From an uncultured Candidatus Saccharibacteria bacterium (GTDB lineage: Bacteria; Patescibacteriota; Minisyncoccia; Phycocordibacterales; UBA2100): DNA of 64,000 nucleotides. The stretch spans positions 65,800 through 129,799 of the forward strand of contig CAZZHR010000002.1 in NCBI GenBank assembly GCA_964654205.1. The letters run 5' to 3'. The position numbers were made by a program, and so were the translations under genes. The stretch's first letter is position 1. Each line of letters opens with the position of its first letter. The notes beneath the pieces were generated by a model that saw only the letters and a list, made by a program, of their open reading frames with translations, made no database searches and was not told where the DNA came from. Positions 6,906 to 59,198 of this stretch are shown one piece after another.

Positions 6906-6911
6906 GTGGCG

Positions 6912-6917
6912 AGTATA
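6912..6917 (-). promoter_or_regulatory. -10 box tggTATACT 6 nt before ATG 6905 (leaderless geometry)
   Basis: The minus strand reads gtggTATACTcgccacATG. Confidence 0.45.
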
Positions 6918-7632: not shown

Positions 7633-7649
7633 GTCTGTCAGTCTATCAT

Positions 7650-7874
7650 TCAACGGTTCGCGTGCATCAGGCATTCCGCTCGGACGTACGGCGGAGTCGC
7701 GTCACAGAAATTCCTCAACCTCACAGTCTTTTGCGCATGCTGATGCAAGTCGACTTTTGCATGACCGAGTGCTGTGTCCATTATCCTGCGCGCCCACTCA
7801 AGCATGCGCGCAGCGAGTATCTCGCCGCTCTCGCGGATGAAGTGGGCAACAGCGCTGATAAAGGACTCGTTCAT
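7650..7874 (-). CDS. small hypothetical protein
   Basis: 74 aa. Its ATG is 1 nt after the stop of the upstream gene. There is no recognisable motif. Support comes only from the tight operon spacing. Confidence 0.35.
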   Translation of the reverse strand: MNESFISAVAHFIRESGEILAARMLEWARRIMDTALGHAKVDLHQHAQKTVRLRNFCDATPPYVRAECLMHANR

Positions 7875-21349: not shown

Positions 21350-21650
21350 GAGCGATGATGCCTGTGGCCGGACGCACGATTTATCTAATATTCTACTACT
21401 CTTTTCGCCAATTGGACGTGTATCGGACACTATTACGTGTGGACAAGCCTAAGCAGAATTTGTACCGGACATTTTTTACATTTTTTCCCACAAGTTCGTA
21501 TCAACGCACAAAAAATTCTCCGTTTTTTTGAAAAAAAGCCTCTTCACTACAACCTCTCACCTCTTACCTACCCCCCTCCTCCCGGCCGACTCGGGCATCC
21601 GAGGAGCGACGTAGAGCGGTATTCCGCGCGTGTGTGGCGCAGAAAATGAA

Positions 21651-27786: not shown

Positions 27787-28422
27787 CTATCGTTCTCCCA
27801 AACCGAAGTGCACTCGCAAGGGTTTATCGTACTCGATTGCGTCCGCAATAATGTATCTCACCTCCGTTCGCAGCGATGCGTCTAGCTTCAGAAGCGTTAT
27901 GATTTCTTCACAATCATACGGGTGCACCCATACGCTGTTTTGCAATCGGTGAAAACCAAGTCTCTTTAATATTTCGCGTACACGATCTCGCGTAGAGCGC
28001 CGCGCATGCGGAATGTCGAATATCACGACTCGCCAACGTCCGTCCCATCGACGCGGCCTAGGTATTTCTACGGCCGAAAGCCGGATGCGTTCCGCATGTG
28101 ACTTTCCCCTCTCCGTCAGTATGGGGTAACGTTTGCCCGAGTGCCGCATAAACTCGACCATCCCTTTTTTCTTCAATCTCGAGAGTGTCTCCCGCAGCCT
28201 CTGCGTGGGCTGCGGGGGCAGGATTACATCAAGGTGTTCTCTTTTGATGAGCGCAGCGACTTTCGGCGCCATCACCGCTACCGTGAGAATTCCTCCGAGA
28301 GCGAGCGTACCTATCACAGCTCTTTCTATCGATCCGCGTCTCAACCGCAGACGAACTCCACTCTCCTGGGATACGCGCGATTCTTGCTCACGCCTCTTCT
28401 GGGTATTCTGTTTTTGCCGCAT
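27787..28422 (-). CDS. PaaX-family-like regulator with a Cas2/VapD-fold C-terminal domain
   Basis: LRETLSRLKKKGMVE (winged-helix-like), then WDGRWRVVIFDIPHARRSTRDRVREILKRLGFHRLQNSVWVHPYD, typical of PaaX C-terminal or Cas2-like domains. ATG 28422 has TACAAT 6 nt upstream. TTG 28437 is an alternative start. Confidence 0.7.
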   Translation of the reverse strand: MRQKQNTQKRREQESRVSQESGVRLRLRRGSIERAVIGTLALGGILTVAVMAPKVAALIKREHLDVILPPQPTQRLRETLSRLKKKGMVEFMRHSGKRYPILTERGKSHAERIRLSAVEIPRPRRWDGRWRVVIFDIPHARRSTRDRVREILKRLGFHRLQNSVWVHPYDCEEIITLLKLDASLRTEVRYIIADAIEYDKPLRVHFGLGER

Positions 28423-28428
28423 GAGTGC

Positions 28429-28434
28429 ATTGTA
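28429..28434 (-). promoter_or_regulatory. -10 box TACAAT 6 nt before ATG 28422 (leaderless geometry)
   Basis: The minus strand reads gtTACAATgcactcATG. Confidence 0.45.
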
Positions 28435-28443
28435 CAAACTTGT

Positions 28444-30867: not shown

Positions 30868-31686
30868 TCACGAACGCTTCTTGCGCGTCGGCCGGCCATG
30901 GTCGTCTTCGATGCGGACAATGTCCTCCTCATCGAAATCGCCGTATGCGACCTCCACGACGATGCCGCCTTTCTTCGACTCGAGCCTGTGTACCTGTTTC
31001 TTGCCCACACAGTACGTCTCGCCCCTTTTGAGCCTCACCTGCTCCGCTTTGCCCTTTGCATCGTGGAGGGTCGCTAAGGCATCGCCCTCTACAAGGAGCC
31101 AGCACTCGCTGCGACGATGATGGTATTGCAGACTCAACCGACTCTTGGGCTTTATGTAAATGGTCTTGAGATTCCAGTCCTTGCCACTGTCCCAGCCGTA
31201 GTATTCGCCCCACGGCCGTACTGTTTTCTTCACCGGTTTTGCCGCTTTCGCGATCATCCAGGACGAAGACTGTACTTTCCCTCCGTGACCAACTCGGTAC
31301 TTCCGCGCGATGCCGAGCTCGATGCACACAGAGTCCTCTGGCGTATTCGACTGTACCCTGTCGCCGCCATTGGCGAAGACGTGCGGGCGCAGCTTCCGGA
31401 GCGTGCGCGAGACACTCATATCGGGGTCGTTCTCCGCGTGGTCGGTGAGCACCACCTTGTCGACGAACGGGAGCGACCGTATCATCTCTGCGCGCTCTTT
31501 CTCCGGCATAAAAGCGAAACCTTTCTTAGACTTGAGCCAATTGTCATTGTTGATGATGACAACAAGCTTGTCGCCGAGCTTCTTTGCCTCCTTAAACATA
31601 CGCACATGTCCGATATGGAGTGGGTCGAACCCCCCCGACACAGCGACCCATCGAACCTTTTTGCTACCGTATCGTGCCTTGGCCAT
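30868..31686 (-). CDS. bifunctional cytidylyl/adenylyltransferase-like domain (RfaE-II / TagD type) fused to a cupin (type II phosphomannose-isomerase-like) domain
   Basis: N-terminal VAVSGGFDPLHIGHVRMF (HxGH nucleotidyltransferase). C-terminal RPWGEY...SLQYHHRRSECWLLVEGDA (cupin motif). Confidence 0.82.
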   Translation of the reverse strand: MAKARYGSKKVRWVAVSGGFDPLHIGHVRMFKEAKKLGDKLVVIINNDNWLKSKKGFAFMPEKERAEMIRSLPFVDKVVLTDHAENDPDMSVSRTLRKLRPHVFANGGDRVQSNTPEDSVCIELGIARKYRVGHGGKVQSSSWMIAKAAKPVKKTVRPWGEYYGWDSGKDWNLKTIYIKPKSRLSLQYHHRRSECWLLVEGDALATLHDAKGKAEQVRLKRGETYCVGKKQVHRLESKKGGIVVEVAYGDFDEEDIVRIEDDHGRPTRKKRS

Positions 31687-31718: not shown

Positions 31719-32459
31719 ATGCGAACTCCTCTATATAATAGGGCTGTGGCGCATATATCACTTATCTTACCCGCGATAGACGAGACGAATTCGCTAGAAG
31801 AGACTGTCCGACTTTCACGTAAGGCACTTTCGTCGCACGACCTCGAGTTTCTCATCGTGACATCTCCCGCCTTTACGACAGGTCCTTGTCTTCGCACAAT
31901 CGAGAATCTGACGACCAACAACCCCGACATTCGACACATCGTGCAAACACTGCCGGGTGTCGGCGGCGCCATACGTAATGCGTTCGATGTTGCGAAGGGC
32001 GAATACACGGTACTCATGGCGAGCGACCTTGAGACTGACCCCGTCGCACTTCCGGCACTCATACAAAAATTGGAGGATGGATTCGACATCGCCGCTACGA
32101 CCCGGTGGCGCGGTGGCGCACATTTCGTAGGCTACCATCCTGTGAAACTTGTATTCAACTACGCATTTCAAAAACTATTTCGCATACTCTACTGGACAGA
32201 CCTCACAGACATGACATACGCATACCGCGCGTACCGCACACCAATAGTAAAACGCATCAGGTGGGAAGAAACGCGGCATCCTTTCCTTTTCGAGAGTATC
32301 GTGAAGCCACTGCGGCTGGGGTACAGAGTGACCGAAGTCGACACCTCATGGAAAGCTCGTTCGGAAGGCGTCTCGCACGGACGACTCACGGACACTCTGA
32401 ACTACGCAAAAGTAGGTCTCAGAGTCCGCTTTATGCCCGCGTCGGAGTTGGTATACTAG
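31719..32459 (+). CDS. GT2 polyprenol-phosphate glycosyltransferase (DPM1/ArnC-like)
   Basis: ISLILPAIDETNSLEETV and MASDLETDP (DxD-like). The alternative in-frame start GTG 31746 has TATAAT 6 nt upstream. Confidence 0.82.
   Translation: MRTPLYNRAVAHISLILPAIDETNSLEETVRLSRKALSSHDLEFLIVTSPAFTTGPCLRTIENLTTNNPDIRHIVQTLPGVGGAIRNAFDVAKGEYTVLMASDLETDPVALPALIQKLEDGFDIAATTRWRGGAHFVGYHPVKLVFNYAFQKLFRILYWTDLTDMTYAYRAYRTPIVKRIRWEETRHPFLFESIVKPLRLGYRVTEVDTSWKARSEGVSHGRLTDTLNYAKVGLRVRFMPASELVY
31734..31739 (+). promoter_or_regulatory. -10 box TATAAT 6 nt before in-frame GTG 31746
   Basis: The sequence reads ctaTATAATagggctGTG. The divergent intergenic gap is only 32 nt. Confidence 0.4.
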
Positions 32460-32559
32460 CCGCAACTCATATGCGTCCAGCTCTCATCACCCCGATACCA
32501 CAATGCTACGCATTGGCTACGGGGCAGGCCGGCGGCATACCTGGTGAGATTTCCTGACT

Positions 32560-33627
32560 ATGAAAAACAAACCGACACTGATTACTGGAGGTTGCGGCTT
32601 CGTTGGACGCCACCTCACGAAAAGCCTCATCGAACGAGGCTATCGAGAAATATGGATTATTGACAACATCGCTCTTGAGAGTGCACACCGTCCACACAGC
32701 TGGCTCTCGGCACGATGGCAAGAGTCCAGTGAGGGCGACGCGCTCATGTATAAGAAAGATGATGTATCGATACGATTCCTCGAGCGCGACGCGCTCGAAG
32801 TGTTCGCTACCCAGCCCGCCGGCGAATTTCCTCAGTTCGGCGATGTCTTCCACCTTGCTTCTATTGTAGGCGGGCGAACGCTTATCGATGGTGACCCCCT
32901 CCTCGTCGCACGTGACCTCGGTATCGATGCCGCGCTATTTCTTTGGCTCTCCCGTGATTCTATGCGCGCCGAACGCGTACTGTACGCTTCATCATCCGCT
33001 GCCTATCCCACGAGACTCCAGGGAGAGAGTGGTGCTGTCGCGCTCAAAGAGTCATTCATAGAATTCTCGGGCGGAACGCTTGGCCAGCCGGACATGACAT
33101 ACGGCTGGGCGAAACTCACCGGCGAGTACCTCGCAAAGCTCGCGCACGAAAAGTACGGCATGCACGTCGCCTGCGTCCGACCATTTTCCGGATATGGGGA
33201 GGATCAAGACCTCACATATCCCACCCCATCTATCGCTCTGCGTGTCGCACGCGGTGACGACCCCATAGAGGTTTGGGGTACCGGTACGCAAGGGCGCGAT
33301 TTCGTGCACATTGACGACTGCGTCGACGCATTCTTCGCTGTACTCGAGAAAGTGTCCGACGGCTCCGCCATCAATATCGGCACTGGGACGCCCACGACAT
33401 TCATTGAATTGATAGAACGCATGCTTACACTCGAAGGTCGTGCAGCAGGAATCAAGCCTCTTTCTGACAAACCGGTCGGAGTGACGACGCGATATGCGGA
33501 CACTACTATGATGGACGAGCGAGTACAGTGGCAGCCGAAAATATCGCTCGACGAGGGACTGCGCCGTGTACTCGACGGTGCGAGACAACGCCTCGCGGGA
33601 AACCCGCTTCCATTCTGCATCGTATGA
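32560..33627 (+). CDS. NAD-dependent nucleotide-sugar epimerase/dehydratase (extended SDR)
   Basis: LITGGCGFVGRHL Rossmann motif and YGWAK (YxxxK). Confidence 0.88.
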   Translation: MKNKPTLITGGCGFVGRHLTKSLIERGYREIWIIDNIALESAHRPHSWLSARWQESSEGDALMYKKDDVSIRFLERDALEVFATQPAGEFPQFGDVFHLASIVGGRTLIDGDPLLVARDLGIDAALFLWLSRDSMRAERVLYASSSAAYPTRLQGESGAVALKESFIEFSGGTLGQPDMTYGWAKLTGEYLAKLAHEKYGMHVACVRPFSGYGEDQDLTYPTPSIALRVARGDDPIEVWGTGTQGRDFVHIDDCVDAFFAVLEKVSDGSAINIGTGTPTTFIELIERMLTLEGRAAGIKPLSDKPVGVTTRYADTTMMDERVQWQPKISLDEGLRRVLDGARQRLAGNPLPFCIV

Positions 33628-34724
33628 AGACGGCAATCGTCACCACAACGATATACGTGCCGAGACTCTTGGCTTCCTATGCCGACGACGCAAAGAAGCA
33701 CGGACACAACCCTATCTTTATCGTAGTCGCGGACAAGAAAACACCGCCGGAGGCCGAGGCGTTCTGCGCAGAACTCGCGAAAACATCGGGGTTTCGCGTC
33801 GAGTACTTTACGGTCGAGCGTCAGGACGAATACCTCTCTCGCTTCCCTGCACTGAAGGCTCACTTACCGTGGAATTGCATCCAGAGGCGCAATGTCGGGC
33901 TCCTCTATGCGTTTGAAGAAGGTTGCGAGACGATTATTACGATTGACGACGACAACTTCCGCGTAACTGAAGACTACATAGGAGCGCATGTTGTCAGCGG
34001 CGAGCGCGAGTGCGACGTAATCTCGACGACAACAGGCTGGCTCAACGTGTGTACTACTCTGAAAGAAAAGCACGGCCGGACTTTCTATCACCGCGGCTTC
34101 CCCCTCGAGAAGCGTCATCTTGAAGAAAACTGGAAGACACAAACACAGACCGTGCGGCCAGTCGTCAACGCCGGTCTCTGGCTCGGCGACCCGGACGTCG
34201 ACGCCATGGAGCGGCTCTACTGGTCCAATGAGCCGACAGAAGCGACCGAATACACAAGCACGCAAAACTACGCTCCGTCAAAGGGCATATGGACGCCTTT
34301 CAATTCACAGAACACCGCCATTGCGCGCCGAGCTATCCCCGCGTATTTTCTCAGTCCCATGGTCGGCCGGTACGATGACATTTGGGCCGCCTACATCATC
34401 AAAAGAATCGCGGACCACCTTGGCGAGTCCATCGTTTTCGGCGAACCTATCGTTCGACAAGAGCGGAACCCGCACAACTATTGGAAAGATCTCGACAATG
34501 AACGCTACGGGCATGCGCTCACTCTTCGTTTTACGCAGGTGCTCGATTCGATTGACCTAGAGGGAAAGGATTACGGCGAGTGCTACGCGGAACTCGTCGA
34601 CTCGCTGCCGACTACATTTACGTCGCTTGGCAAACTCTCCGACGTGGAGGACGCGTTCGTCGCCGGGTATTTTGAGGGTATGAGAGTATGGCGCGAGACA
34701 TTCCCTACCCAGCCCGGACAGTAA
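33624..34724 (+). CDS. reversibly-glycosylated-polypeptide (RGP, GT75) family protein, UDP-arabinopyranose-mutase-like
   Basis: TIDDDNF, HRGFPLEKR, GLWLGDPDVDA and GRYDDIWAAYI parallel the plant RGP motifs TIDDDCF, VRGYPFSLR, GLWLNIPDYDA and GRYDDMWAG. ATGA overlap with the upstream SDR gene. Confidence 0.75.
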   Translation: MKTAIVTTTIYVPRLLASYADDAKKHGHNPIFIVVADKKTPPEAEAFCAELAKTSGFRVEYFTVERQDEYLSRFPALKAHLPWNCIQRRNVGLLYAFEEGCETIITIDDDNFRVTEDYIGAHVVSGERECDVISTTTGWLNVCTTLKEKHGRTFYHRGFPLEKRHLEENWKTQTQTVRPVVNAGLWLGDPDVDAMERLYWSNEPTEATEYTSTQNYAPSKGIWTPFNSQNTAIARRAIPAYFLSPMVGRYDDIWAAYIIKRIADHLGESIVFGEPIVRQERNPHNYWKDLDNERYGHALTLRFTQVLDSIDLEGKDYGECYAELVDSLPTTFTSLGKLSDVEDAFVAGYFEGMRVWRETFPTQPGQ

Positions 34725-35055
34725 CGACGACACCAAGCAGTATCATCGCCAGGCCTATGGCCTGGAAAAGGGTGATGCGCTCGCCGAGGAGAATCGCTGC
34801 ACCTGTAGTGAGCACAAACGTCATACCTATCATAATGGGGTAGCCTACGGCGAGCGGCACAGAGCGCAGCGCGAGGAGGTAGAAACCGAGATTGAGTGCA
34901 AAGAGGACAGCAGCGCTCGCAGCGTACAGATGAGCAGCCGTGAACTCAAACCTAAACAATGCAGAAAAGGAAAACTGATTCGCAGCAGCAAACTTGAGCA
35001 GCACGTTCGCTGCAGCGTTGAGCGTGAAAGCGAGTGCGAGAAACATTAGGTTCAT
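34705..35055 (-). CDS. SMR/EamA-like 4-TM small transporter (ArnE/F-type lipid-linked sugar flippase candidate)
   Basis: 116 aa with four hydrophobic helices and an EmrE-like size. TAGACT lies 6 nt upstream of the ATG. Confidence 0.65.
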   Translation of the reverse strand: MNLMFLALAFTLNAAANVLLKFAAANQFSFSALFRFEFTAAHLYAASAAVLFALNLGFYLLALRSVPLAVGYPIMIGMTFVLTTGAAILLGERITLFQAIGLAMILLGVVVTVRAG

Positions 35056-35069
35056 AGCGTAAGTCTATA

Positions 35070-36605
35070 CTATTCGTCCGACGGTAGCGTGCGCCAAATA
35101 CCGATACCTTTCTCGCCGCCTACCCTATGAATCTCCGAAAGATTCGCCCATGGGCTCTCGACACCCAAGAACTGCCTGTAACGATACTGGATATAGAGAT
35201 CAAAATCTGCAAGATAACCAATATGCTCCTCATCGAGATACGCCCAGAGTCTGCGCTCTCGGAGAGCAGAGGCCGCTTCATTGTTCACAAGCCCGTCGAG
35301 ATTAACGATTCTATGCTCGGAGAAATAGGCTTGCACGCCCGCGTTGAATACACCTATCGTAGAATTCTCGGGCAGGTTCTCGTTCATCCAATGCGCAGCC
35401 TCGTACATGACAAGTTGCTGCGACTGCGCATACCGAAGATCTTTTTCCCAAGCGAAAACAAAAAGGGCTCCGACAGCAAGCGCACAAACTGCTGACGGGA
35501 GTGGTCGCAGCCACCCCCCTTCCCGCCACCTTCCGAGCATCCAGGCTACGAATAGGACGAAGAAGATATTGAACGCCACAAAGTACCATTCTCGAAACGT
35601 CCATCGAATGCTCGCGCTGGTTATGAAATGAAGCAATGTCCCCGCAAAAAGAAAAGCTTCTACTGGCATTTTCAGATTCACAAACCGCTCTCGTGCAGAG
35701 ATTGCCCACGCAATAACTGCACCAATAAACATGAGCGCCAAGAGAGGCGCGCCAGTTTGGTCGATAACCTGGCGTACTGCGCGCTCTGTCATGTATACGA
35801 CTGCTTTCATCTGCACGAAAAGACCCTCTCCGTTGTCTACTTTCACCAATTCATGATTTACGATAGTTGAGGAAACAGACGAAGATGTGAACAGCATGCC
35901 GAAATTCACGAAATTCCACGCAAGCCACGGTGCAACAAAGACTGTCGCTACTAGGCCAGCAGCAATTGAGTGTCGAATACCGACTACGAAGCCGTGTCGA
36001 TACATTAGAAACACGAAAAAGAGCAAGAGGTAGAATACATTGTCGAGTCGGGCAAGCATGAGGAGACCCGCCGCGGCTCCGACGAACAGAAGTCGAAGCA
36101 TTGTCGGCGACTCACTGTAACGGACAGCGGCGAGCACGGTAGTAGATAGAAGCGCCAATGACAGCGGCGTTTCAAGTCCTGACGACATTCCGTAGAGGAC
36201 AAATGGATTGAAGAGCCAGAGTGCTAGTGCACTGGCTTGTACCCAGACACTATTCGTGTACCGGCGCAGAATGAATAAAAGGGTCACTGCGGTCAATGCG
36301 CTCAGAAGCACCGAGAGTGCAAGCGCCGCCCGGACGGGTTCGATATCCATTTCACTGCCCGTGGAAAATATTGAGAAGATTCCCGTGAGCATGACGAGCC
36401 AAAGCGGATGAAATCCATTCGTCGGATTCTCGCCGTCAAAGGTCACGCCGTTCCCCTCAATGATATTGCGCGCGATTTGGAAATAGTAGAATGAATCATC
36501 AGGGATAAGATCCGAGAGCCAGAAAGAGAGCGGCTGAAAGACCATCCACAGCTGGAGTATTAAGCCGACTGCAACAGTCAGGTACGGCAGCGGTCGCGCA
36601 GTCAT
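35070..36605 (-). CDS. GT-C fold membrane glycosyltransferase (ArnT/PMT-like)
   Basis: At least 10 TM helices and a first-loop DDSFYYFQIARNI motif typical of GT-C enzymes. The start is ATG 36605 or TTG 36614. Confidence 0.7.
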   Translation of the reverse strand: MTARPLPYLTVAVGLILQLWMVFQPLSFWLSDLIPDDSFYYFQIARNIIEGNGVTFDGENPTNGFHPLWLVMLTGIFSIFSTGSEMDIEPVRAALALSVLLSALTAVTLLFILRRYTNSVWVQASALALWLFNPFVLYGMSSGLETPLSLALLSTTVLAAVRYSESPTMLRLLFVGAAAGLLMLARLDNVFYLLLFFVFLMYRHGFVVGIRHSIAAGLVATVFVAPWLAWNFVNFGMLFTSSSVSSTIVNHELVKVDNGEGLFVQMKAVVYMTERAVRQVIDQTGAPLLALMFIGAVIAWAISARERFVNLKMPVEAFLFAGTLLHFITSASIRWTFREWYFVAFNIFFVLFVAWMLGRWREGGWLRPLPSAVCALAVGALFVFAWEKDLRYAQSQQLVMYEAAHWMNENLPENSTIGVFNAGVQAYFSEHRIVNLDGLVNNEAASALRERRLWAYLDEEHIGYLADFDLYIQYRYRQFLGVESPWANLSEIHRVGGEKGIGIWRTLPSDE

Positions 36606-36638
36606 ACGAGTCAATGGATTCTAGCGAGTACAGTATGG

Positions 36639-36650: not shown

Positions 36651-37913
36651 ATGAAACAACGCCTGCTGGGACTGATAGATCAGGCGAGCGGGTTGCTCCG
36701 CACGGATCTCCGCTATTCGATGTCGGGCGGCTTTTTTCTTACGGCCATGCAAATCACGAGCGCTATCATCAGCTTTGGCCTCACAGTAGCGTTCGCCAAC
36801 CTGCTCCCGGTTGATACATATGGTACGTACCGGTACATGCTCGCAGCATACGCCATCCTTTCCATCTTCGCGCTCCCAGGCATAGAGACCGCCCTCATGC
36901 GAGCAGTATCCGTCGGCAAGGAAGGTGCGTTCGCAGAAAGTCTGCGGACCAAATTCCGGTGGGGATTACTAGGCTCGCTCGCCGCCGTCTTCTACGCTGG
37001 TTATCTTTTCTCTCAGGACAGCATGGTAATGGCCGGCCTTTTCATTGTCGTTGCACTCATGCTCCCGGCGATGGAATCCCTAGCCCTGTACAGCACCTTC
37101 TTCAACGGCAAGAAGCTTTTTCGACAGTGGGCTGCGTTCGATATTGCCGCGCAGCTGCTGTCAGTAACGGCGCTCGTTGGGGCGATGATCGCTACGAAAA
37201 ACATCGTAGCGCTCCTGCTCGCCTACTTCCTGCCATACATCATCGTCCGCGTAATCGGAAGCTGGTACGTGAAGGAGTATCACGTGACAAGCGACACACC
37301 AGACAGCGAGCTCATGCCGTACGCTAAATCTGTTACATTCTTTCAAATCATTTCGAAGATTTCTTCCTCGCTCGACCAAATAGTCCTCTACCACGTGCTA
37401 GGTCCCGCGCAGGTCGCCATCTATTCGCTCGCGATGGCTATCCCGAATCGGGCTCAGGGATTATTCAAAATCAGCGGTATTCTCGCGTTCCCCAAATTCG
37501 CCGCCCGAACGAGCGGAGAAGTCGTGTATACGCTACCGAGAAAGATGCTTCTTTTCGGTGCCGGCATCATGCTTGTGTGTGTGGTGTACGTGCTTATAGC
37601 GCCGTACCTATTTGCACTTCTCTTCCCACAATATATGGCATCTCTCACCTACTCGCAGGTCGCGATATTCTTTACACTTTCTGCCGTGACCTACCCGTTT
37701 AGTTCGTTCCTATTTTCGCATAAAAGACTCGCGGAGAATTACGCAATCTCGCTCGGGAGCTTCTTCAGTAAAATTATTGCGCTCGCCGTATTCGTTCCTT
37801 TTTACGGTATCTGGGGCGCGATTATTAGCGTCCTAGTCGCGTCCGCTACCACAACCACGATATCGGTCATCGTACTGTGGCGCGAGCGACGCAGCTCTCC
37901 TGTCGCTTCCTAG
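36651..37913 (+). CDS. Wzx-type oligosaccharide/polysaccharide flippase (MOP superfamily)
   Basis: 420 aa, about 12 TM helices, with Polysacc_synt-like organisation. Confidence 0.78.
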   Translation: MKQRLLGLIDQASGLLRTDLRYSMSGGFFLTAMQITSAIISFGLTVAFANLLPVDTYGTYRYMLAAYAILSIFALPGIETALMRAVSVGKEGAFAESLRTKFRWGLLGSLAAVFYAGYLFSQDSMVMAGLFIVVALMLPAMESLALYSTFFNGKKLFRQWAAFDIAAQLLSVTALVGAMIATKNIVALLLAYFLPYIIVRVIGSWYVKEYHVTSDTPDSELMPYAKSVTFFQIISKISSSLDQIVLYHVLGPAQVAIYSLAMAIPNRAQGLFKISGILAFPKFAARTSGEVVYTLPRKMLLFGAGIMLVCVVYVLIAPYLFALLFPQYMASLTYSQVAIFFTLSAVTYPFSSFLFSHKRLAENYAISLGSFFSKIIALAVFVPFYGIWGAIISVLVASATTTTISVIVLWRERRSSPVAS

Positions 37914-38865
37914 CAATGCAGTACAAGGATATGTAGCGCTTTCTTGTCGGGAGCATGACGAGGTAGATGATGATAGCTGGTATCCCAAATAGAACCGCGT
38001 CCTTCATCGACGCAAGTGTCGCAGTAACAGATATGACTCGCTCCTTCGGACTTCCTATATGAATGTGGCCATCATTCCGGAGTGCGCGCTTGGTTTTGTC
38101 GACAAGACCGAAGGAGAATGCTGTGCCATAGAGGAACCGCAACTTCACAATAAGGTAACGCAGCCCACCGAAGTATCGAGTCATGTAGACAATTTCGAAC
38201 CCATGTCGCTCAAGATACATTTGAAGAGAGTGTCTGTCCCAGCACGTGAGGTGTCGGGGTGGAAGGTCGCCGCGCATGAGCCAGTCGGCATGGTGCCTAT
38301 AAGGCATCGACATGGCGACGTATCCCCCATCTCGAAGTGATTGTTTGACCGCTTCGATAAAGTCGGCGTGATTATCGATATGTTCAAACACGTCAAAAAA
38401 TGTTACGAGGTCGAACTTTCTCTCTGGATGCTTGCGCGCATACTCAATGATGTCCCCGAGCTCGACATTGGGCAGTTGAAAAAGTGTGTTCGCGACCCGT
38501 ACCGCATCTCGATCAAAATCCAGCCCATAGGGATCCCATTTTTGAGAACGTGCGTAGTACAGAAAATTGCCCGTCCCACAGCCGACGTCGAGCACGCGGC
38601 CATACATCGGTGCGAGTTTCGAGATAACTTTGAGATGGTTCCAATTCGGCTTCATAAGCGGATCTCTGTTGCGACCGGCGTATCGTGTATCTTTTTCGTA
38701 CCATTCAGCGCCTGGATTTTTCAAAGGGGACCAAAACCACGCATCGCATGTGCCGCAGTCAAAGAGCATATAGGTTATGCCACTATCTTCGTGTGTGCGA
38801 CCGCGCGGTCTCGCATCGGTTGCTCCGCATAAAGGACATATCGATGCAGGTACCGTCTGTGCCAT
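37867..38865 (-). CDS. class I SAM-dependent methyltransferase with an N-terminal Cys4 zinc ribbon and a C-terminal TM
   Basis: CPLCG...CGTC ribbon and the VLDVGCGTGNF motif I. Trimmed to MAQTVPAS, because the upstream part of the ORF is antisense to the radical SAM gene. Confidence 0.8.
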   Translation of the reverse strand: MAQTVPASICPLCGATDARPRGRTHEDSGITYMLFDCGTCDAWFWSPLKNPGAEWYEKDTRYAGRNRDPLMKPNWNHLKVISKLAPMYGRVLDVGCGTGNFLYYARSQKWDPYGLDFDRDAVRVANTLFQLPNVELGDIIEYARKHPERKFDLVTFFDVFEHIDNHADFIEAVKQSLRDGGYVAMSMPYRHHADWLMRGDLPPRHLTCWDRHSLQMYLERHGFEIVYMTRYFGGLRYLIVKLRFLYGTAFSFGLVDKTKRALRNDGHIHIGSPKERVISVTATLASMKDAVLFGIPAIIIYLVMLPTRKRYISLYCIARKRQESCVARATVR

Positions 38866-38976: not shown

Positions 38977-40740
38977 ATGAAGAAAAAGTTCATCCTCGCG
39001 GCTCGCTATTACAGCATCGAGCCGCTGGGGATCCTGTACTTGGCCGGTCTCGTGAAAGCGATGCCGGACTGGGACTGCAAGGTGGTGCTCGTTCGCGAGT
39101 ACAATTTTGAGGAGCTCTACGATGCCGTGCGAAGCTGGCAGCCTGACCTGGTCGGCTTCCAGATCTGGACGGGATACCACATTCCCGCCTTCGCCGCCTG
39201 CGACCGCATACGGGGTATGGGCGTGCCCGTCGTGATAGGCGGCCCGCACGCTACGTACTTCTCGGATGAATGCAAGAAGCATGCAGAGTGGGTAGTCCAA
39301 GGAAGCGGCTTCGGCCTCCTCCAGAAGATACTCACGGGTCTTGGTGGCGGCGTTCACTTCGACAAGTCGGGCCGAGAAGAGGTTTTCCCCCTTCCTGACC
39401 GCGACGTCGTCTACAATGCGTATCCCGAGTTGGGTAACAGCCCGATTAAGAGCATCTTCGGCTCAGTCGGGTGCCCAATGACGTGCACGTACTGTTATGC
39501 GCCCTCGTTCAACGAGATGCATGGTGGCTTCAAACTAACCGTGCGTCCCGTCGACGACATCGTGCGCGAGGCGAAGGCGATCATGGAGCAGTGGCCACTT
39601 CGAATGGTCTACTTCCAGGACGACATTTTCGGGTACAACATCCGTTGGCTCGAGGAGTTCTCCAAGAAGTGGAAATCCGAGGTTGGAGTCCCGTACCACT
39701 GCCAGATCCGATTGGAGCTGACCCGACACGACAAAGGCGATCAGCGCCTAGACCTCTTCGCTGAAGGCGGCTGCAGCGGCATTACGCTCGCGATAGAAAG
39801 TGGCAACGCTTTTCTTCGCGACCGCGTGCTCTTCCGCCACATGCCCGACGAACTCATCGTCGAGGGATGCCGGAAGATCATGGATCGAGGGATGACGCTC
39901 CGGACGGAGCAGATTCTCGCGGTGCCCTTTAGCGACACGGTCACAGACCTCGCGACGCTCGACCTCAATAACCGTATCAGACCTACGATGGCGTGGACAT
40001 CGATCCTCGCCCCCTATGCCGGGACGGACATGGGCACGATCGCGAAGAATTTCGGATTCTATGACGGCAACAACGATGACCTGTCGGAATCTTTCTTCGA
40101 CAGGAGCGTACTCCGACATGTCGAAGGAGGCCCGCGGGACATCGAGGCAATCGTTGAAAAATCCGGAACTCCCGCGAACGTGCACGCGGCGAAGCAACCG
40201 CTTTTGAGCCTTCGGGCGCACAGGCGCAACAGCTACGACGCAGATGTGGTCGACAAGACTGGATTGAAGCACGGCACTATTCGGTATCTGGACCAGGTCG
40301 ACAACGAGAGGTACTGCAGGGACACCGTTCGTCTTCAGCGCCTGTTCAACTGGCTGGCAATGGTGCCGCAGGCAGCGAAGCTCGGACGCATGCTTGTGGA
40401 CATTCCGGAGGAGGAGTGGACATGGGCACGCATCGGCCGCGAGAGCGAGAAGCACCTGCACGATACGGGCGTCGGCGACGTGGAGTCATGGAAGCGCGAG
40501 CTTGCACGCGAAATGTCCGTCGAGGTATTGCCCGAGCCGATCGCTCAAAACATTCCGTTCTTCGCGCACTTCCCTGCGGGAGGCGTGCTCGCGCGGAGCG
40601 TGGTGGAAAAAGATGTCCTGCGTTCCACGAGAACGACGGGCGAGGCACTCGATGAACTCGGGACACTCGCGCGCCGGCACCTCTTCCACTTCGGCCTCTA
40701 CAAGATCGAAGAAGGATTGGCGCCGATCGCAAGTCGCTGA
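38977..40740 (+). CDS. B12-binding-domain radical SAM enzyme
   Basis: An N-terminal cobalamin-binding-like Rossmann region (IEPLGILYLAG...VVIGGPHAT), then GSVGCPMTCTYCYAPSF (CxxxCxxC). GGGGTG Shine-Dalgarno (SD, ribosome-binding) sequence upstream. Confidence 0.88.
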   Translation: MKKKFILAARYYSIEPLGILYLAGLVKAMPDWDCKVVLVREYNFEELYDAVRSWQPDLVGFQIWTGYHIPAFAACDRIRGMGVPVVIGGPHATYFSDECKKHAEWVVQGSGFGLLQKILTGLGGGVHFDKSGREEVFPLPDRDVVYNAYPELGNSPIKSIFGSVGCPMTCTYCYAPSFNEMHGGFKLTVRPVDDIVREAKAIMEQWPLRMVYFQDDIFGYNIRWLEEFSKKWKSEVGVPYHCQIRLELTRHDKGDQRLDLFAEGGCSGITLAIESGNAFLRDRVLFRHMPDELIVEGCRKIMDRGMTLRTEQILAVPFSDTVTDLATLDLNNRIRPTMAWTSILAPYAGTDMGTIAKNFGFYDGNNDDLSESFFDRSVLRHVEGGPRDIEAIVEKSGTPANVHAAKQPLLSLRAHRRNSYDADVVDKTGLKHGTIRYLDQVDNERYCRDTVRLQRLFNWLAMVPQAAKLGRMLVDIPEEEWTWARIGRESEKHLHDTGVGDVESWKRELAREMSVEVLPEPIAQNIPFFAHFPAGGVLARSVVEKDVLRSTRTTGEALDELGTLARRHLFHFGLYKIEEGLAPIASR

Positions 40741-40821: not shown

Positions 40822-41259
40822 ATGACAAAGAAACACCCTATCACCGTGGTTGTATCCGGAGGTTTCGACCCTGTACATATCGGCCACGTCCGAATGTTTC
40901 GCGAAGCCAAAAAGCTCGGAGACACGCTTATTGTGGTCTTGAATAATGACAATTGGGTGAAGGACAAAAAGGGGTACGTATTCATGCCCGCCAAGGAGCG
41001 GAAAGAAGTTATTGAAAGCATTAAATATGTTGATAAGGTCGCACTCTCATCTCACATACCAGGCGACGCGGACAAGACCATCGCGCGTGAACTGAGGCGT
41101 ATTAGACCCGATATTTTTGCCAATGGTGGTGGTGCGAAGCATATGCCTGGTAATGAACTCGACACCTGTCGTGAACTCGGCATTCAACTCGCTTACGACG
41201 TGGGGGGCAGAAAGAAAGTTCAGTCGAGCTCGCGGCTCGTACAAAATTCAAGGCACTGA
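40822..41259 (+). CDS. stand-alone cytidylyl/adenylyltransferase-like protein, paralog of the N-terminal domain of 30868-31686
   Basis: [37 protein letters not shown] aligns almost residue for residue with [37 protein letters not shown]. Confidence 0.85.
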   Translation: [145 protein letters not shown]

Positions 41260-43814: not shown

Positions 43815-44942
43815 CTAGGTTCGCTCTAACGCCTCTTTGACAATCTTGATCACGTAATCCACCTCGTTTTTCTTGAGCTTCGCATACATCGGGAGTGACA
43901 CAGTGCTGCCCGCAATCTTCTCCGCTATGGGAAAATCCCGTGTCTTGAATCCGAACTTCTTCTTGTAGAGCGTAAAAAGGTGGATAGGCGGATAGTTGAT
44001 GACGGCGCCAACACCGTGAGTATTCAAGTATGCGAGTACCGCGTCGCGCTTTTTCGCCTCCACCCAAATGGGAAAGAGATGGTATCCGTGAATCGCGCCA
44101 CGAAGCGCCTCCGGCATTTGAATAGCCAGATTCTTGAAACCGGCGCGATACTTTTTTGCCACCGCTTCTCTTTTTGCGCGCGTCGAATCCGCTTTTCTCA
44201 ACTGCGGCAAGAGCATGGCACCCTGTATATTGTTCATGTTTGCTTTCCATCCAGCCACGTTAATATCGTATGTCTTAAGCCCCGTCCTCTCGCGTTGGGC
44301 GAGCTCCGACGTGATGCCATGTGAACGCAATTGACGCATGAGCGCTGCGACATCATCGCTCTGCGTTGCAAACGCCCCGCCTTCGCCGCTTGTAATTCCT
44401 TTTGTCGCATAAAAACTAAAGCAGGCGCCGAATGACTTTTCGCCCGGCCGAATGCCATCGCGCTTAGCCTCAAGAGCATGTGCAGCGTCCTCGATGACAA
44501 TGAGCTTGTTCCTTTTTGCGATGGAAAGGATTTTCTTCATATCAACCATTTGCCCGTACAGATGGACGGGCAGTATGGCTTTAGTGCGCTTCGTAATGGC
44601 TTTTTCTATGAGGTCCGCGTTGATATTGCCCGTATGCGACTCAACATCAACGAAAACCGGTTTTGCTCCGGTCATCAAAATGACATTCGAACTCGCGACA
44701 AACGACATGGGTGTCGTGATGACCTCGTCTCCTTCCCCTACGCCGGCAGCAAGCAGCGCGAGATGCAACGCGCTCGTACAGCTCATAAGCCCGATTGCAT
44801 GTTTTGTGCCAAGGTATCGAGCGAGTGCCTTCTCAAACGCGTCCACGTCCGCGCCTGTCGTGAGGAAAAGTGACTGCAGCACACCATCGACGGCGGCGCG
44901 TTCCTTTTCTCCCACATTATGTTTAAAAAAAGCCACTTTCAT
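43815..44942 (-). CDS. DegT/DnrJ/EryC1/StrS-family PLP-dependent sugar aminotransferase
   Basis: FSFYATKGITSGEGGA (PLP Lys) and a family-typical N-terminal region. Confidence 0.9.
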   Translation of the reverse strand: MKVAFFKHNVGEKERAAVDGVLQSLFLTTGADVDAFEKALARYLGTKHAIGLMSCTSALHLALLAAGVGEGDEVITTPMSFVASSNVILMTGAKPVFVDVESHTGNINADLIEKAITKRTKAILPVHLYGQMVDMKKILSIAKRNKLIVIEDAAHALEAKRDGIRPGEKSFGACFSFYATKGITSGEGGAFATQSDDVAALMRQLRSHGITSELAQRERTGLKTYDINVAGWKANMNNIQGAMLLPQLRKADSTRAKREAVAKKYRAGFKNLAIQMPEALRGAIHGYHLFPIWVEAKKRDAVLAYLNTHGVGAVINYPPIHLFTLYKKKFGFKTRDFPIAEKIAGSTVSLPMYAKLKKNEVDYVIKIVKEALERT

Positions 44943-44943
44943 A

Positions 44944-45930
44944 CTAGACCCTTGATACTTCGGAGAATATCTGTTTGAAAACTTCTATATTGTAGTAGCG
45001 CAGATTGGCGTAGTCGAAAGAAGCATCGTAGTGTTCGTCCAAACCTTTCAGTATCGATGCCACGGAGCCAGTTGGTCTAAATTTGAGCTCTTTCTTAGCC
45101 TTTTCTATGGTCGCGGTGTAATTGCGAAGATCTGGTGAGTTGAGTATCTCGAGTGCTATCTCTACACCGTGCTTCTTTTTAAAGTGCGCTTGTATCTCTT
45201 CGGCTACCGCTCCCACTGTGACGTTGCAACTCGCAATGTTAAACGTACCAGAAACAGCTTGTGGTGCCTCGATAGCGAGGATGTACGCCTGCACGGCGTC
45301 ATCCATATCAAGAAGCGGGCGACCTATCTTGGGATTGTCTACGACTATCTTTTTTCTCAGGCGGGCATTTTTGTACATCGCATTCACAAGGAGGTCGAAG
45401 CGCATGCGCGGACTCCAACCTGATACGGTACCTTTCCGAATCGCAATGACCGAAAAATCTTTGCTCGCGAGAGGCATAAGTGCTTGATTCGCCTGCGCCT
45501 TGGACGCGCCATACGGATACGCAGACGTGAGCGGCGCGTTTTCGTCGCACACTTTCCCGTCGGCATTGCCATACACAGAACACGAATCGGCGAATATGAA
45601 TCGATTGACCCCCGCATGGAGAGCTGCAAATGCCGAATACGCTGGAACGCCAAGATTGCTGATAAAGTTGTACGCGCTCGCATACTGCGCCATCGGATCG
45701 CTCGAGAGACCGGCGAGAAATACGACCGTATCAAACCCTTTAAAAAAATCCTGCGGCACCTTGAGTACGTCGGATTTTACTAGTGTTACGGACTCATCGA
45801 GATGGTTCCCAAACCAGCACGGATCGACGACCGTGACTTTGTACCCGCGCTCAAGCAGCTCGGGAACAAGTCTGGTCCCGATGTATCCTGCCCCACCTAT
45901 TACGCACAGGCTTCGAGGGCTCTTTGTCAT
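44944..45930 (-). CDS. NAD-dependent nucleotide-sugar epimerase/dehydratase (SDR)
   Basis: VIGGAGYIGTRLV and YGASK (YxxxK). TATACA lies 6 nt upstream of the ATG. Confidence 0.88.
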   Translation of the reverse strand: MTKSPRSLCVIGGAGYIGTRLVPELLERGYKVTVVDPCWFGNHLDESVTLVKSDVLKVPQDFFKGFDTVVFLAGLSSDPMAQYASAYNFISNLGVPAYSAFAALHAGVNRFIFADSCSVYGNADGKVCDENAPLTSAYPYGASKAQANQALMPLASKDFSVIAIRKGTVSGWSPRMRFDLLVNAMYKNARLRKKIVVDNPKIGRPLLDMDDAVQAYILAIEAPQAVSGTFNIASCNVTVGAVAEEIQAHFKKKHGVEIALEILNSPDLRNYTATIEKAKKELKFRPTGSVASILKGLDEHYDASFDYANLRYYNIEVFKQIFSEVSRV

Positions 45931-45983
45931 GTTGGCTGTATAGTACGCACAATCGTGGTGTAAATCAAACGTACACGTCTCTC

Positions 45984-46649
45984 CTACTGTCCCGTGTCAC
46001 CCTGCTTATATATTTTTAGAATGTACGTGTGTCCATCGTGTGTAAAATGCGCAGGATATCGTTCGTTGTCGACCACTCGAAGCAAGTTGAATTGCTGGAG
46101 AATGGTTTGATGTATGTCGAGTTCGCTATCTTTGGATTTACGCTTCTTGTACCACGTACTTTCCCCCCGCTGCTCTCTCGGCTCATTGTGTGGATATGCA
46201 TCGATGAATTTAAGTGCGAGTTCAATGGTTTTTTGTCCTTGCGCTTGCTTCAGCTCTTCATTGAGTTCATGTCCTTGAAAATGAATAGTGTCCTTATAGT
46301 AGTACGGTCCCGAATCTACTTTTGCCACAGCCTCGAAGAGCGTTACAGGGATATCATTTTTACCCTCCAATATTTGCCAGGTCAGCGGTGAAAATCCTTG
46401 GCCGAGCGGGAGATCGCTCGGGTGAATCACGATGTTGTGCCTGTGTTTTTGTAGCGTGGACTCCGGCACAATCTTGTCGCAGCTAAGTATGAAGAGGATG
46501 TCGCCTTTCTCTATATCATTTTCCACCCCGAAAATTCTTACTGAGTGTCCTCGCGACTCGATGGCCAACTTAAGTTCAGCAATGTAGGGGTGTATCCAGC
46601 TATTTGGATTATCAACGAATATCGATATTGAGAGGTTTTGCTTTGCCAT
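45984..46649 (-). CDS. formyltransferase-domain protein (sugar N-formyltransferase candidate)
   Basis: NIVIHPSDLPLGQGFSPLTWQILEG matches the Formyl_trans_N motif (H.SLLP..RG..P). GATAAT lies 6 nt upstream of ATG 46649. Confidence 0.78.
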   Translation of the reverse strand: MAKQNLSISIFVDNPNSWIHPYIAELKLAIESRGHSVRIFGVENDIEKGDILFILSCDKIVPESTLQKHRHNIVIHPSDLPLGQGFSPLTWQILEGKNDIPVTLFEAVAKVDSGPYYYKDTIHFQGHELNEELKQAQGQKTIELALKFIDAYPHNEPREQRGESTWYKKRKSKDSELDIHQTILQQFNLLRVVDNERYPAHFTHDGHTYILKIYKQGDTGQ

Positions 46650-46659
46650 AGCGCAATTA

Positions 46660-47793
46660 TCATCGTCGCGAGCGCTTGTGGTCAAGGAGTTGCGAAAAGA
46701 GTCTCGCCAGTGCGGCCGCGGAGTTTTCTATCGTACGGTCGCCGTAGCGCACCCTTGCTTCTCGGGCGAGGCGCGCCATAAGAGCATCATCAGAGAGTGC
46801 GCGAACAAGCGCGCGGGCAAGCCCCTCTACATCTCGAGGCTCCGCGAGAAGTCCTGTTTCTTCGTGCTTTATGACGTCCGGGATACCGCCCACGTTCGAC
46901 GCCACGATGGGTAGATCTGAAAAGAACGCTTCCGCAAGTACCATGCCTTGCCCTTCCCACACCGAAGGAAATACGAAGATGTCCGCACTTCTCATAAGGT
47001 CTGGTACATCTTTGCGGGCGCCTAGGAAGATGACTCTGTGCTCAATGCCGAGTTCTTTTGCCTCCTGTTTGAGCGAGGCTTCAAGCCCACCTATTCCCGC
47101 TATTGCAAAATATGTGTCTGGCTTATCTTTAAGAACCAGCGGCATCGCCCTTAAGAGGTACGTATGACCTTTTTGTTCTATGAGGCGCCCCACTGTGAGT
47201 ACGAAATGCGCACCCTCTGGTATTCCGATTTCGCGCCGTATCTTTACCCTATCTATCGGCGTAGTGAATTTCGAAAGGTCGACCGCGTTCATTGATATTT
47301 CGTGGATTTTCTTTTGGGGAAAACCAATCACATCACGTGCGTAGACAGATATTGCCTGTGTTTGCGAGAGACACGCATCTGTACATTTAGATAAAACCCA
47401 GTCAGTCCAGATGTATTTTTTGGGAAGTGACGGGATGAGGTTCTGTACGGCCGTCACGATAAGTCGCGTACGAGCAAGGAGGGCTGCCAACCTACCGAAG
47501 AGATCCGACATGAACAGTTGTGTGAAGACGACATCAAATTTCTCCCTACGTATGTACCGATATAGTCGAAAGAACCCGGGTACGTCCCAAAAACCCCTGA
47601 AACCGAAATCAATGTATACGACCGACGGTTTCAGCAGGTCTTTGAAGAAAGAGTACTTTTGCTCGGTGCGGAGTGTCGCGACGGTCACATCTACGTCCTT
47701 CTTTTCTAGTTCGTTCGCGAAGTTTACGACGAGCCGTTGTACACCACCGGGCGCGAGCTCATTCGTCAGCAGAAGCAGCTTGAACTTACTCAT
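46660..47793 (-). CDS. GT4-family glycosyltransferase
   Basis: VFPSVWEGQGMVLAEAFFSDLPIVASNVGGIPDVI. Confidence 0.9.
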   Translation of the reverse strand: MSKFKLLLLTNELAPGGVQRLVVNFANELEKKDVDVTVATLRTEQKYSFFKDLLKPSVVYIDFGFRGFWDVPGFFRLYRYIRREKFDVVFTQLFMSDLFGRLAALLARTRLIVTAVQNLIPSLPKKYIWTDWVLSKCTDACLSQTQAISVYARDVIGFPQKKIHEISMNAVDLSKFTTPIDRVKIRREIGIPEGAHFVLTVGRLIEQKGHTYLLRAMPLVLKDKPDTYFAIAGIGGLEASLKQEAKELGIEHRVIFLGARKDVPDLMRSADIFVFPSVWEGQGMVLAEAFFSDLPIVASNVGGIPDVIKHEETGLLAEPRDVEGLARALVRALSDDALMARLAREARVRYGDRTIENSAAALARLFSQLLDHKRSRR

Positions 47794-51423: not shown

Positions 51424-51441
51424 GGCGACGTATACTAGCAA

Positions 51442-59136: not shown

Positions 59137-59143
59137 GCACGGT

Positions 59144-59149
59144 ATTATG
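59144..59149 (-). promoter_or_regulatory. -10 box CATAAT 7 nt before ATG 59136
   Basis: The minus strand reads cgCATAATaccgtgcATG. Confidence 0.4.
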
Positions 59150-59198
59150 CGACACGAATCAATGAGAGAGTGTTTGACTATTGAATCGCTGTGGATTC

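Follow-up and report, generated by a model that had tools for sequence, protein, structure and literature searches.

A GT75 mutase-like gene within a lipid-carrier glycosylation locus of a Candidatus Saccharibacteria bacterium: a possible route to polyprenyl-phosphate-linked furanose

Which sugar would be handled, and where would it be placed, by a locus in which a gene of the reversibly glycosylated polypeptide (RGP) family, glycosyltransferase family 75 (GT75), lies among genes of the kind used for lipid-carrier glycosylation? The question is raised by positions 31719-36614 of a 64,000-nucleotide stretch from an uncultured Candidatus Saccharibacteria bacterium (GenBank assembly GCA_964654205.1, contig CAZZHR010000002.1, positions 65,800 to 129,799 of the forward strand), which is referred to here, at its full length, as the window. 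An earlier note, made from the letters without database searches, had described a plant-type, UDP-arabinopyranose mutase-like gene at this place, perhaps fed by a short-chain dehydrogenase/reductase (SDR) and accompanied by a family 2 glycosyltransferase (GT2), a small multidrug resistance (SMR)-type protein and a GT-C enzyme. All five open reading frames (ORFs) are present in the window:

31719..32459, plus strand: GT2 of the DPM1/DPMS/ArnC/GtrB kind, 246 aa, soluble or peripheral; predicted polyprenyl-phosphate furanosyltransferase
32560..33627, plus strand: extended SDR, 355 aa, a nucleoside diphosphate (NDP)-sugar epimerase/reductase; probably supplies or tailors the nucleotide-sugar for the mutase
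33624..34724, plus strand: GT75 (RGP-family) protein, 366 aa; predicted metal-dependent NDP-pyranose/furanose mutase with an Ile86/Gln279 signature
34705..35055, minus strand: SMR-like four-helix membrane protein, 116 aa; candidate flippase for the lipid-linked sugar
35070..36614, minus strand: GT-C membrane glycosyltransferase, 514 aa; predicted extracytoplasmic transferase with a polyprenyl-phosphate-sugar donor

The ATGA overlap remarked on in the earlier note lies at 33624-33627, where the SDR stop codon overlaps the GT75 start, and the two genes are translationally coupled. The homologue alignments of GT75 begin at ATG 33624 and not at the upstream GTG 33528. The minus-strand pair is convergent on the plus-strand genes, GT-C coming first and the SMR-like gene following after 14 bases; the database copy of the GT-C protein begins 3 codons later, at 36605. 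Scans for promoters and terminators and a scan against Rfam returned nothing informative.

We propose, with somewhat more confidence than doubt, that 31719-36614 is a self-contained route that places a furanose on an extracytoplasmic acceptor via a lipid carrier. The families or folds of the components were identified and most of their catalytic residues are conserved. In the proposed route, the SDR would make or tailor a pyranose nucleotide-sugar, probably a GDP-sugar, acting neither as a dehydratase nor as a 3,5-epimerase. The GT75 protein would then contract the ring to give an NDP-furanose, presumably by the arginine-adduct, divalent-cation scheme that has been proposed for MtdL, and the GT2 would load this furanosyl residue onto polyprenyl phosphate on the cytoplasmic side; that the donor of the GT2 is a furanose is suggested by the near-obligate synteny of GT2 and GT75. 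The SMR-like protein might flip the lipid-linked sugar, which is the weakest step, and the GT-C enzyme would pass the sugar on to an acceptor outside the membrane, either a glycan or a protein. The order of events put forward in the earlier note, from NDP-sugar to furanose to polyprenyl-phosphate-sugar to extracytoplasmic transfer, is thus retained, its logic being supported by the comparative evidence. To a more specific formulation we give a little less than an even chance: that the unit is a widespread, undescribed bacterial route in which a GDP-(6-deoxy)hexofuranose, e.g., L-fucofuranose, from an Ile87/Gln287 clade of GT75 (MtdL numbering) is loaded by an anchor-less DPM1-like GT2 and transferred outside by the GT-C enzyme.

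The GT75 protein matches the Pfam RGP model (PF03214), which we take to be built mainly on plant sequences, with 37.9 bits (E value 1.6e-9; gathering score 23.8), and it contains all four of the RGP motifs that the earlier note had quoted, TIDDDNF (residues 106-112), HRGFPL (156-161), GLWLGDPDVDA (184-194) and GRYDDIWAAYI (248-258). A much stronger match, over residues 2-329, is obtained with the structures of MtdL (PDB: 7xpr, 7xps, 7xpt, 7xpu, 7yua, 8hl8; E value 2e-47, 165 bits), which are deposited as "Transglycosylse" and are the only solved relatives. MtdL is the GDP-L-galactose/GDP-L-fucose pyranose-furanose mutase of A201A biosynthesis, and according to the 2023 structure paper only two bacterial GT75 enzymes, both from antibiotic pathways, had been characterised (PMC9937993). 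At an E value of 1e-3 or below, 6109 GT75 homologues (90%-identity clusters) and 2728 cluster representatives were found; the closest are metagenomic and share 68-79% identity with the window protein, and those that are named carry the label Candidatus Kaiserbacteria. Based on sequence comparison, the window protein belongs to a large, biochemically uncharacterised bacterial clade of GT75.

The residue roles described for MtdL (PMC9937993) were mapped onto the window protein, with the following result:

D109-D111 and N112 of MtdL: D108-D110 and N111 in the window, kept
R159 (nucleophilic Arg): R157, kept
D195: D191, kept
S228 and Q229: S228 and Q229, kept
R257: R249, kept
D260 (proposed general base): D252, kept
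R289: R281, kept
H292: H284, kept
D87: I86, changed
H287 (Mn2+ ligand): Q279, changed

The DxD and arginine residues that the earlier note had named as necessary for mutase activity (D108-D110 and R157) are therefore in place, while the two active-site departures, Asp87 to Ile and His287 to Gln, had been overlooked there. The DDD-N residues are invariant in 17 clade members and occur in nearly all of the 150 best representatives of 50%-identity clusters, which constitute the residue survey reported here. Gln stands at MtdL position 287 in all 17 of the aligned clade members and in more than 100 of the 150 representatives, and positions 87 and 287 covary: about 81 of the 150 have Ile, Val, Phe or Gly at 87 together with Gln at 287, and 31 keep the MtdL-like pair of Asp87 and His287.

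Two further positions bear on the nucleotide. Thr13 and Ser86 are treated as base-selecting in MtdL (PMC9937993); they correspond to Thr8 and Cys85 in the window protein, whose base-selecting residues are, as judged from this alignment, of the GDP type. In this respect the protein resembles the actinobacterial enzymes MtdL and Hyg20 (of A201A and hygromycin A biosynthesis, respectively; PMC9937993), with which it shares family and fold (the MtdL match extends over about 330 residues), the GDP-type Thr and a small residue at position 86. With the plant RGPs, or UDP-arabinopyranose mutases, it has in common the PF03214 domain, the DxD motif, the autoglycosylated Arg and the GRYDD motif; the relationship is nevertheless distant (38 bits to the Pfam model), and in the plant enzymes, which keep His287 and use UDP-sugars, MtdL positions 13, 86 and 87 are occupied by Pro, Asp and Ser (PMC9937993). 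The plant Pro/Asp/Ser combination was found in none of the 150 best representatives. The description "plant-type" therefore has to be given up in favour of a bacterial clade.

The nature of the sugar can be approached through the SDR and through the neighbours of related GT75 genes. The SDR (PF01370; E value 2.7e-34) has a GalE-like triad of Ser144-146, Tyr181 and Lys185 that is conserved in 36 orthologs. Its nearest enzymes include the GDP-sugar enzymes GDP-mannose 3,5-epimerase (GME) and Fcl, and its top PDB matches also include UDP-hexose and UDP-GlcA 4-epimerases. With GME it shares the local motif YASS..YP...LKES; the acid/base Cys145 of GME is replaced with Ala, and Lys217 of GME with Pro. 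A role as GDP-mannose 3,5-epimerase or as Fcl was rejected on account of these two replacements. 4,6-Dehydratases have an acidic residue near the catalytic Ser, and since the corresponding segment of the SDR, YASSSAAYP, has none when read by eye (it was not aligned to a dehydratase), this role is also judged unlikely. Most simply, the SDR would be a single-centre epimerase or a 4-ketoreductase.

Members of the Ile/Val plus Gln clade lie beside Gmd, Fcl and/or ManC-like genes in seven of the related loci (L014, L035, L040, L055, L057, L084 and L086), three of which read as follows:

L040 (Nitrospirales): ManC-like, Gmd (170 bits), Fcl (442 bits), GT2, GT75
L084: GT2, Gmd (371 bits), Fcl (299 bits), GT75, GT-C-like
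L055: Fcl, GT75, Gmd, ManC-like

A third type of SDR, related to Fcl, accompanies the GT-C/GT2/GT75 operons of Binatia and others. Together, the GDP-type base residues and the GDP-L-fucose neighbours make a GDP-linked hexose or 6-deoxyhexose considerably likelier than a UDP-pentose; L-fucose would be handled in some of the loci, as it is by Hyg20. MtdL and Hyg20 are similar in this as well, members of the window clade being likewise found beside GDP-fucose genes.

The pentose that the earlier note had favoured would require a plant-like UDP-L-arabinopyranose mutase, fed by the SDR as a UDP-xylose 4-epimerase and leading to polyprenyl-phosphate-L-arabinofuranose. The GalE-like triad of the SDR and the 4-epimerases among its top PDB matches would fit such a scheme, as would the presence of the arabinofuranosyltransferase AftB among the best structural matches of the GT-C enzyme. 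We nevertheless consider it very improbable: the base residues are of the GDP type (Thr8, Cys85) and not the plant Pro/Asp, the match to MtdL is far stronger than that to the RGP model, the nearest enzymes of the SDR include GME and Fcl, the neighbours in other phyla are GDP-fucose genes (Gmd, Fcl, ManC-like) and not UDP-xylose genes, and no UDP-xylose synthase was identified next to the module from Pfam and NCBIfam matches.

Two side observations concern modification of the sugar. One GT75 homologue, P0124 (570 aa), has at its C-terminus some 200 aa that resemble, by sequence, a class-I S-adenosylmethionine (SAM) methyltransferase. Separately, a methyltransferase gene of the window (37867-38850) has orthologs close to the module in L001, L010, L026, L027 and L071. 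Both may hint that the sugar is methylated.

The evidence that joins the GT75 gene to its neighbours comes from synteny. A scan of one genome per species confirmed 278 loci. From these, 80 were retained and their six-frame ORFs searched with the window proteins; the counts refer to the 73 that have 2.6 kb or more of upstream DNA. The assembly labels of the kept loci include Patescibacteria, Acidobacteriota (Bryobacterales and Terriglobales), Binatia, Nitrospirota, Gammaproteobacteria, Chlamydiae, Planctomycetia and Actinomycetota. In 49 of these a GT2 ortholog is found directly upstream of GT75. The 73 loci divide into 25 with the order GT2-SDR-GT75, 24 with GT2-GT75, 6 with SDR-GT75 and 18 with neither partner. 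SDR and GT75 are fused in P0121 (SDR at residues 11-364, GT75 at 382-740, each with about 450 bits to the window proteins), and a fusion also occurs at locus L013. ORFs resembling the GT-C enzyme, as detected with an iterated local profile, are found in 30 of the 49 GT2-positive loci and in 4 of the 24 GT2-negative ones (Fisher p = 4e-4), and profile-profile comparison with hhalign gave homology to the GT-C enzyme with a probability of 89% in L076 (Binatia), 57% in L084 and 96% in L088 (Planctomycetota).

A reciprocal test started from the GT2. Three relatives with 45-48% identity, from other lineages and on unrelated contigs (L087, L088 and L089), are each followed by a 306-aa protein and then by an SDR of the window type. 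By hhalign, that of L088 proves to be a short homologue of GT75 (probability 100%, E value 6.5e-44), which keeps DDDN, HRGYP, GDPDIDA, FNSQNT and GRMDDIW and has Gln at the His287 position; those of L087 and L089 match the window GT75 by phmmer (E values 1.6e-33 and 8.5e-36). Since the arrangement of GT2, SDR and GT75 recurs in dozens of loci in several phyla, it is not a chance juxtaposition. The linkage of these three genes is cross-phylum and reciprocal, that of the GT-C gene less firm, and the synteny in relatives that the earlier note had called for proved strong in both directions, with GT2 directly upstream in 49 of 73 loci and the GT75-type gene beside 3 of 3 distant GT2 relatives. The unit of GT2, GT75 and SDR, with or without GT-C, is not peculiar to the source organism, as it is found under Patescibacteria, Acidobacteriota, Binatia, Nitrospirota, Planctomycetota and Gammaproteobacteria labels.

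The short form is of interest in its own right. In all three contigs, which are Planctomycetota-type and others, the 306-aa protein (at about 6800-7700) is without the C-terminal helical region and has no Pfam match; it is an unannotated branch of GT75. The setting is different in L085 (168-9344), where three PF01663 (Phosphodiest) genes in a row and a PMT_2 GT-C gene come after a GT75 homologue; here the sugar might be connected with phosphodiester chemistry.

The GT2 (PF00535; 51 bits) has its best NCBIfam matches far below the cut-offs, and the four strongest of them are dolichyl- or undecaprenyl-phosphate glycosyltransferases. Its sequence matches in the PDB are DPMS (5mlz), ArnC and GtrB only, and the top 25 Foldseek matches of its AlphaFold2 model (pLDDT 90.7) to PDB entries are all DPMS, ArnC or GtrB (TMq up to 0.77; E values 2e-15 to 7e-10). 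Thus, by sequence and by structure, its nearest relatives are exclusively polyprenyl-phosphate glycosyltransferases. The GT-C enzyme scores 26.4 bits with PMT_2 against a cut-off of 26.1. Its relatives were found by fold comparison only, a sequence search of the PDB having given no match; the AlphaFold2 model (pLDDT 92.4) has the GT-C fold, with AftB as the top Foldseek match. Asp39-Asp40, just after the first transmembrane helix, in the first extracytoplasmic loop, is invariant in 35 homologues down to 25% identity, and a similar DD motif aligns in the ORFs of L076 and L088. The SMR-like protein (116 aa) has four hydrophobic segments. The first of them, as read from the sequence, has no acidic residue comparable to Glu14 of EmrE, which argues against a classical drug/proton antiporter. 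As to the three partners named in the earlier note, the GT2 and the GT-C enzyme have the folds expected of them; the SMR assignment stays below threshold, and this gene is conserved in a minority of loci only.

A number of observations weigh against the proposed route, beginning with the GT75 active site. The Mn-binding His287 of MtdL is Gln279 in the window protein, and Asp87 is Ile86, so that there is no acidic or polar residue at a position which in MtdL (Asp) and in plants (Ser) contacts the sugar C4/C6 hydroxyls; D87N and D87S abolish MtdL activity, and loss of His287 (and of Arg257) has been linked to the inactive plant AtRGP5, the His287 equivalent being kept in the active plant RGP1-3 (PMC9937993). 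The GT75 protein of this clade might accordingly not be a mutase but a self-glycosylating arginine glycosyltransferase, or a non-catalytic partner, as class-2 plant RGPs are, that binds an NDP-sugar or passes it to the GT2. The replacements at 287 (H to Q) and 87 (D to I/V) are fixed and covary in the roughly 81 representatives mentioned above, and autoglycosylation is also a known activity of GT75 enzymes. Still, the DDD motif, R159, D195, Q229, R257, D260, R289 and H292 are all invariant, and the side-chain oxygen of Gln is, by general chemistry, able to ligate Mg2+ or Mn2+. The association of the clade with complete GDP-L-fucose pathways mirrors the role of Hyg20, and active plant mutases likewise lack Asp87, with Ser in its place (PMC9937993). 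A protein without mutase activity is, in our judgement, quite unlikely, and a metal-dependent mutase remains the preferred reading.

The other observations of this kind concern the partners and the unity of the locus. The GT2 has no transmembrane segment (maximum Kyte-Doolittle 19-residue mean 1.03) and hence no membrane anchor, and at its presumed D-x-D site, located by reading and not by alignment to DPMS, it has the segment M-A-S-D103-L-E105-T-D-P. DPMS and GtrB have a D-x-D motif at this site, and some eukaryotic DPM1 enzymes are without a transmembrane helix. In 35 members of the GT2 family D103, L104 and E105 are invariant and the first Asp position is Ala or Ser. All matches of the SMR-like protein to ArnE, ArnF and SMR models are below the curated cut-offs (PF00893 22.2 bits, cut-off 23.7; ArnF 25.8, cut-off 99; ArnE 23.8, cut-off 92; Qac SMR 28.6), and orthologs that keep the position and orientation of its gene were found in no more than 5 of about 80 related loci, all five from Patescibacteria-type assemblies, some of them labelled Saccharibacteria. 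Detection of the GT-C enzyme in loci outside Patescibacteria relies on weak profile scores, and for the 614-aa membrane ORF upstream of GT2 in L024 (Bryobacterales) hhalign gave no detectable relation to it. Gmd, Fcl and ManC were not detectable in the window. GT75 is found without GT2 in 24 of the 73 loci, e.g., in the ABC-transporter-type cluster of L086, from which it follows that the GT75 product is not used only via the lipid route but also by other transferases, probably soluble ones.

These last loci would also suit two independent modules that happen to be neighbours, in which the SDR and GT75 would provide a soluble NDP-furanose, or some other NDP-sugar, to cytoplasmic GT4 enzymes of the glycan island around them, and GT2, SMR-like protein and GT-C would form a separate decoration of the Gtr/Arn type that loads a different sugar. 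The sugar of the latter could be a hexose, or a formylated amino sugar like 4-deoxy-4-formamido-L-arabinose (Ara4FN) from genes at 43.8-51.4 kb; the window indeed has seven GT4 genes, a DegT/ArnB-like aminotransferase, an ArnA-N-like formyltransferase and a fragment of an NDP-sugar dehydrogenase, and the GT2 matches ArnC about as well as DPMS. Such a division is difficult to reconcile with the GT2-GT75 adjacency across phyla (49 of 73 loci) and with the three distant GT2 relatives, 3 of 3, that have it without Arn-like genes. Moreover, the aminotransferase and formyltransferase genes are 8-12 kb away on the other strand, and the aminotransferase scores higher as PseC (338 bits) than as ArnB (270 bits), both below cut-off. 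Among five related loci annotated with Pfam, DegT occurs in L001 and L086 and formyltransferase in none, with no ortholog search aimed at these genes. We regard two separate modules as unlikely, though credible, and keep to a single route through the lipid carrier.

How would this route relate to systems already described? Three-component systems for the lipid-linked transfer of sugars are well known, e.g., GtrB/GtrA/Gtr*, ArnC/ArnE-F/ArnT and CsbB/GtcA/YfhO. The window module is like them in its GT2 of the DPMS/ArnC/GtrB class, its small candidate flippase with four transmembrane segments, its GT-C enzyme with an acidic loop and the clustering of its genes. It differs in that the GT2 has no C-terminal transmembrane helices, in that the SMR gene is found in a minority of loci, and in having its own GT75 mutase and SDR, which implies a furanose donor. 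In plants, UDP-arabinofuranose is used by Golgi glycosyltransferases and is not known to pass through a polyprenyl-phosphate intermediate. From MtdL and Hyg20 the window clade is set apart by Ile or Val for Asp87 and by Gln for the Mn ligand His287, by its occurrence in envelope-glycan loci of many phyla, including the Candidate Phyla Radiation (CPR), and not in antibiotic clusters, and by the coupling of GT75 to a polyprenyl-phosphate GT2 and a GT-C enzyme where MtdL and Hyg20 have soluble natural-product glycosyltransferases.

The closest functional parallels are mycobacterial decaprenyl-phosphate-arabinofuranose (DPA), used by AftA-D and Emb, and undecaprenyl-phosphate (Und-P)-ribofuranose, for which systems with MATE and GT136 proteins were reported from Citrobacter youngae in 2024 (PMC11127046). 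In these, as in the proposed route, a polyprenyl-monophosphate furanose is used by GT-C enzymes outside the membrane. Their donors come from phosphoribosyl pyrophosphate (PRPP) via a polyprenyl phosphoribose synthase, a phosphatase and epimerases, whereas in the window a nucleotide-furanose made by GT75 would be moved by a Leloir-type GT2, and a pentose is less likely to be the sugar than a hexose or 6-deoxyhexose. A PRPP-type synthase is not indicated by the Pfam and NCBIfam matches of the ten ORFs at 28.6-40.7 kb, no screen having been aimed at it. The CDP-fucofuranose pathway of Campylobacter employs an FAD mutase and not a GT75. A literature search, with subscription journals outside its coverage, found no report on a GT75 mutase together with a polyprenyl-phosphate GT2, nor on GT75 in CPR bacteria or Acidobacteriota, and nothing relevant on an experimental study of the gene set or under terms of the Und-P-galactofuranose or -arabinofuranose type.

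The wider surroundings suggest an acceptor. The module is part of a surface-glycan island that spans about 29 kb (28623-57238) and whose Wzx/Wzy-type product is a candidate acceptor for the GT-C enzyme. The island encodes a Wzy_C plus TPR protein, a Wzx-like Polysacc_synt flippase, the seven GT4 genes, two further methyltransferases, a B12-binding radical-SAM enzyme (38977-40740), three more SDRs, an aminotransferase and a formyltransferase, as well as a second small cytidylyltransferase-like gene (40822-41259). The first such gene is divergent from the GT2 and is listed as a tentative accessory gene:

30868..31686, minus strand: cytidylyltransferase-like domain fused to a cupin domain

The fusion protein (PF01467, 61 bits; PF01050, 74 bits) has RfaE domain II and the C-terminal region of GMP_PMI as its best NCBIfam matches, both below cut-off, and 3glv as its best PDB match. 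The HIGH-motif domain is nearest to RfaE domain II and TagD, the cupin part is of the mannose-6-phosphate-isomerase type, and the nucleotidyltransferase fold differs from that of the classical GMP/PMI enzymes. Orthologs were found near the module only in Kaiserbacteria-like loci (L004, L005, L006, L008, L010 and L077), and the protein could provide a sugar-activation step.

The Arn-like gene set occupies 43815-46685 and 49441-51441 and comprises the DegT-family aminotransferase, an SDR and the ArnA-N-like formyltransferase, which suggests an N-formylated amino sugar in the glycan. One ORF of the set joins an N-terminally truncated NDP-sugar dehydrogenase to a GT4 domain, which may reflect gene fusion, gene decay or an error in the assembly. 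Beside the island, at 27787-28437 and 57928-61079 on the minus strand, are genes for a PaaX-middle/Cas2-like domain protein, a protein with a ComEA-like helix-hairpin-helix and PKD, and a TraG/VirD4-like coupling ATPase, which suggest DNA-uptake or conjugation-type machinery. Two giant ORFs on the minus strand, 10115-14242 (1375 aa, with three DUF7483 stretches and a SPRY domain) and 14912-21430 (2172 aa, with no Pfam match besides a weak HTH_17), may encode large surface or host-interaction proteins, which are common in CPR genomes.

If the proposed route is correct, it would be, as far as could be found, the first case of a polyprenyl-phosphate-furanose derived from a nucleotide-furanose, and the first role in envelope biogenesis for a bacterial GT75, including those of the CPR/Patescibacteria. 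It would predict a third biochemical route to lipid-linked furanose donors, beside the two found in the literature, both PRPP-based, of mycobacterial DPA and Und-P-ribofuranose. To our knowledge, furanoses are absent from mammals and are often antigenic, and a new donor pathway with its GT-C transferases would therefore interest glycobiologists and glycoengineers. The covarying changes from Asp87 to Ile and from His287 to Gln constitute a natural experiment on the unsettled mechanism of GT75, with respect both to the metal and to sugar specificity. Thousands of uncharacterised bacterial GT75 homologues would thereby be given a testable context, envelope glycosylation, with relevance to the surfaces of uncultured ultra-small (CPR) bacteria and of the abundant soil Acidobacteriota.

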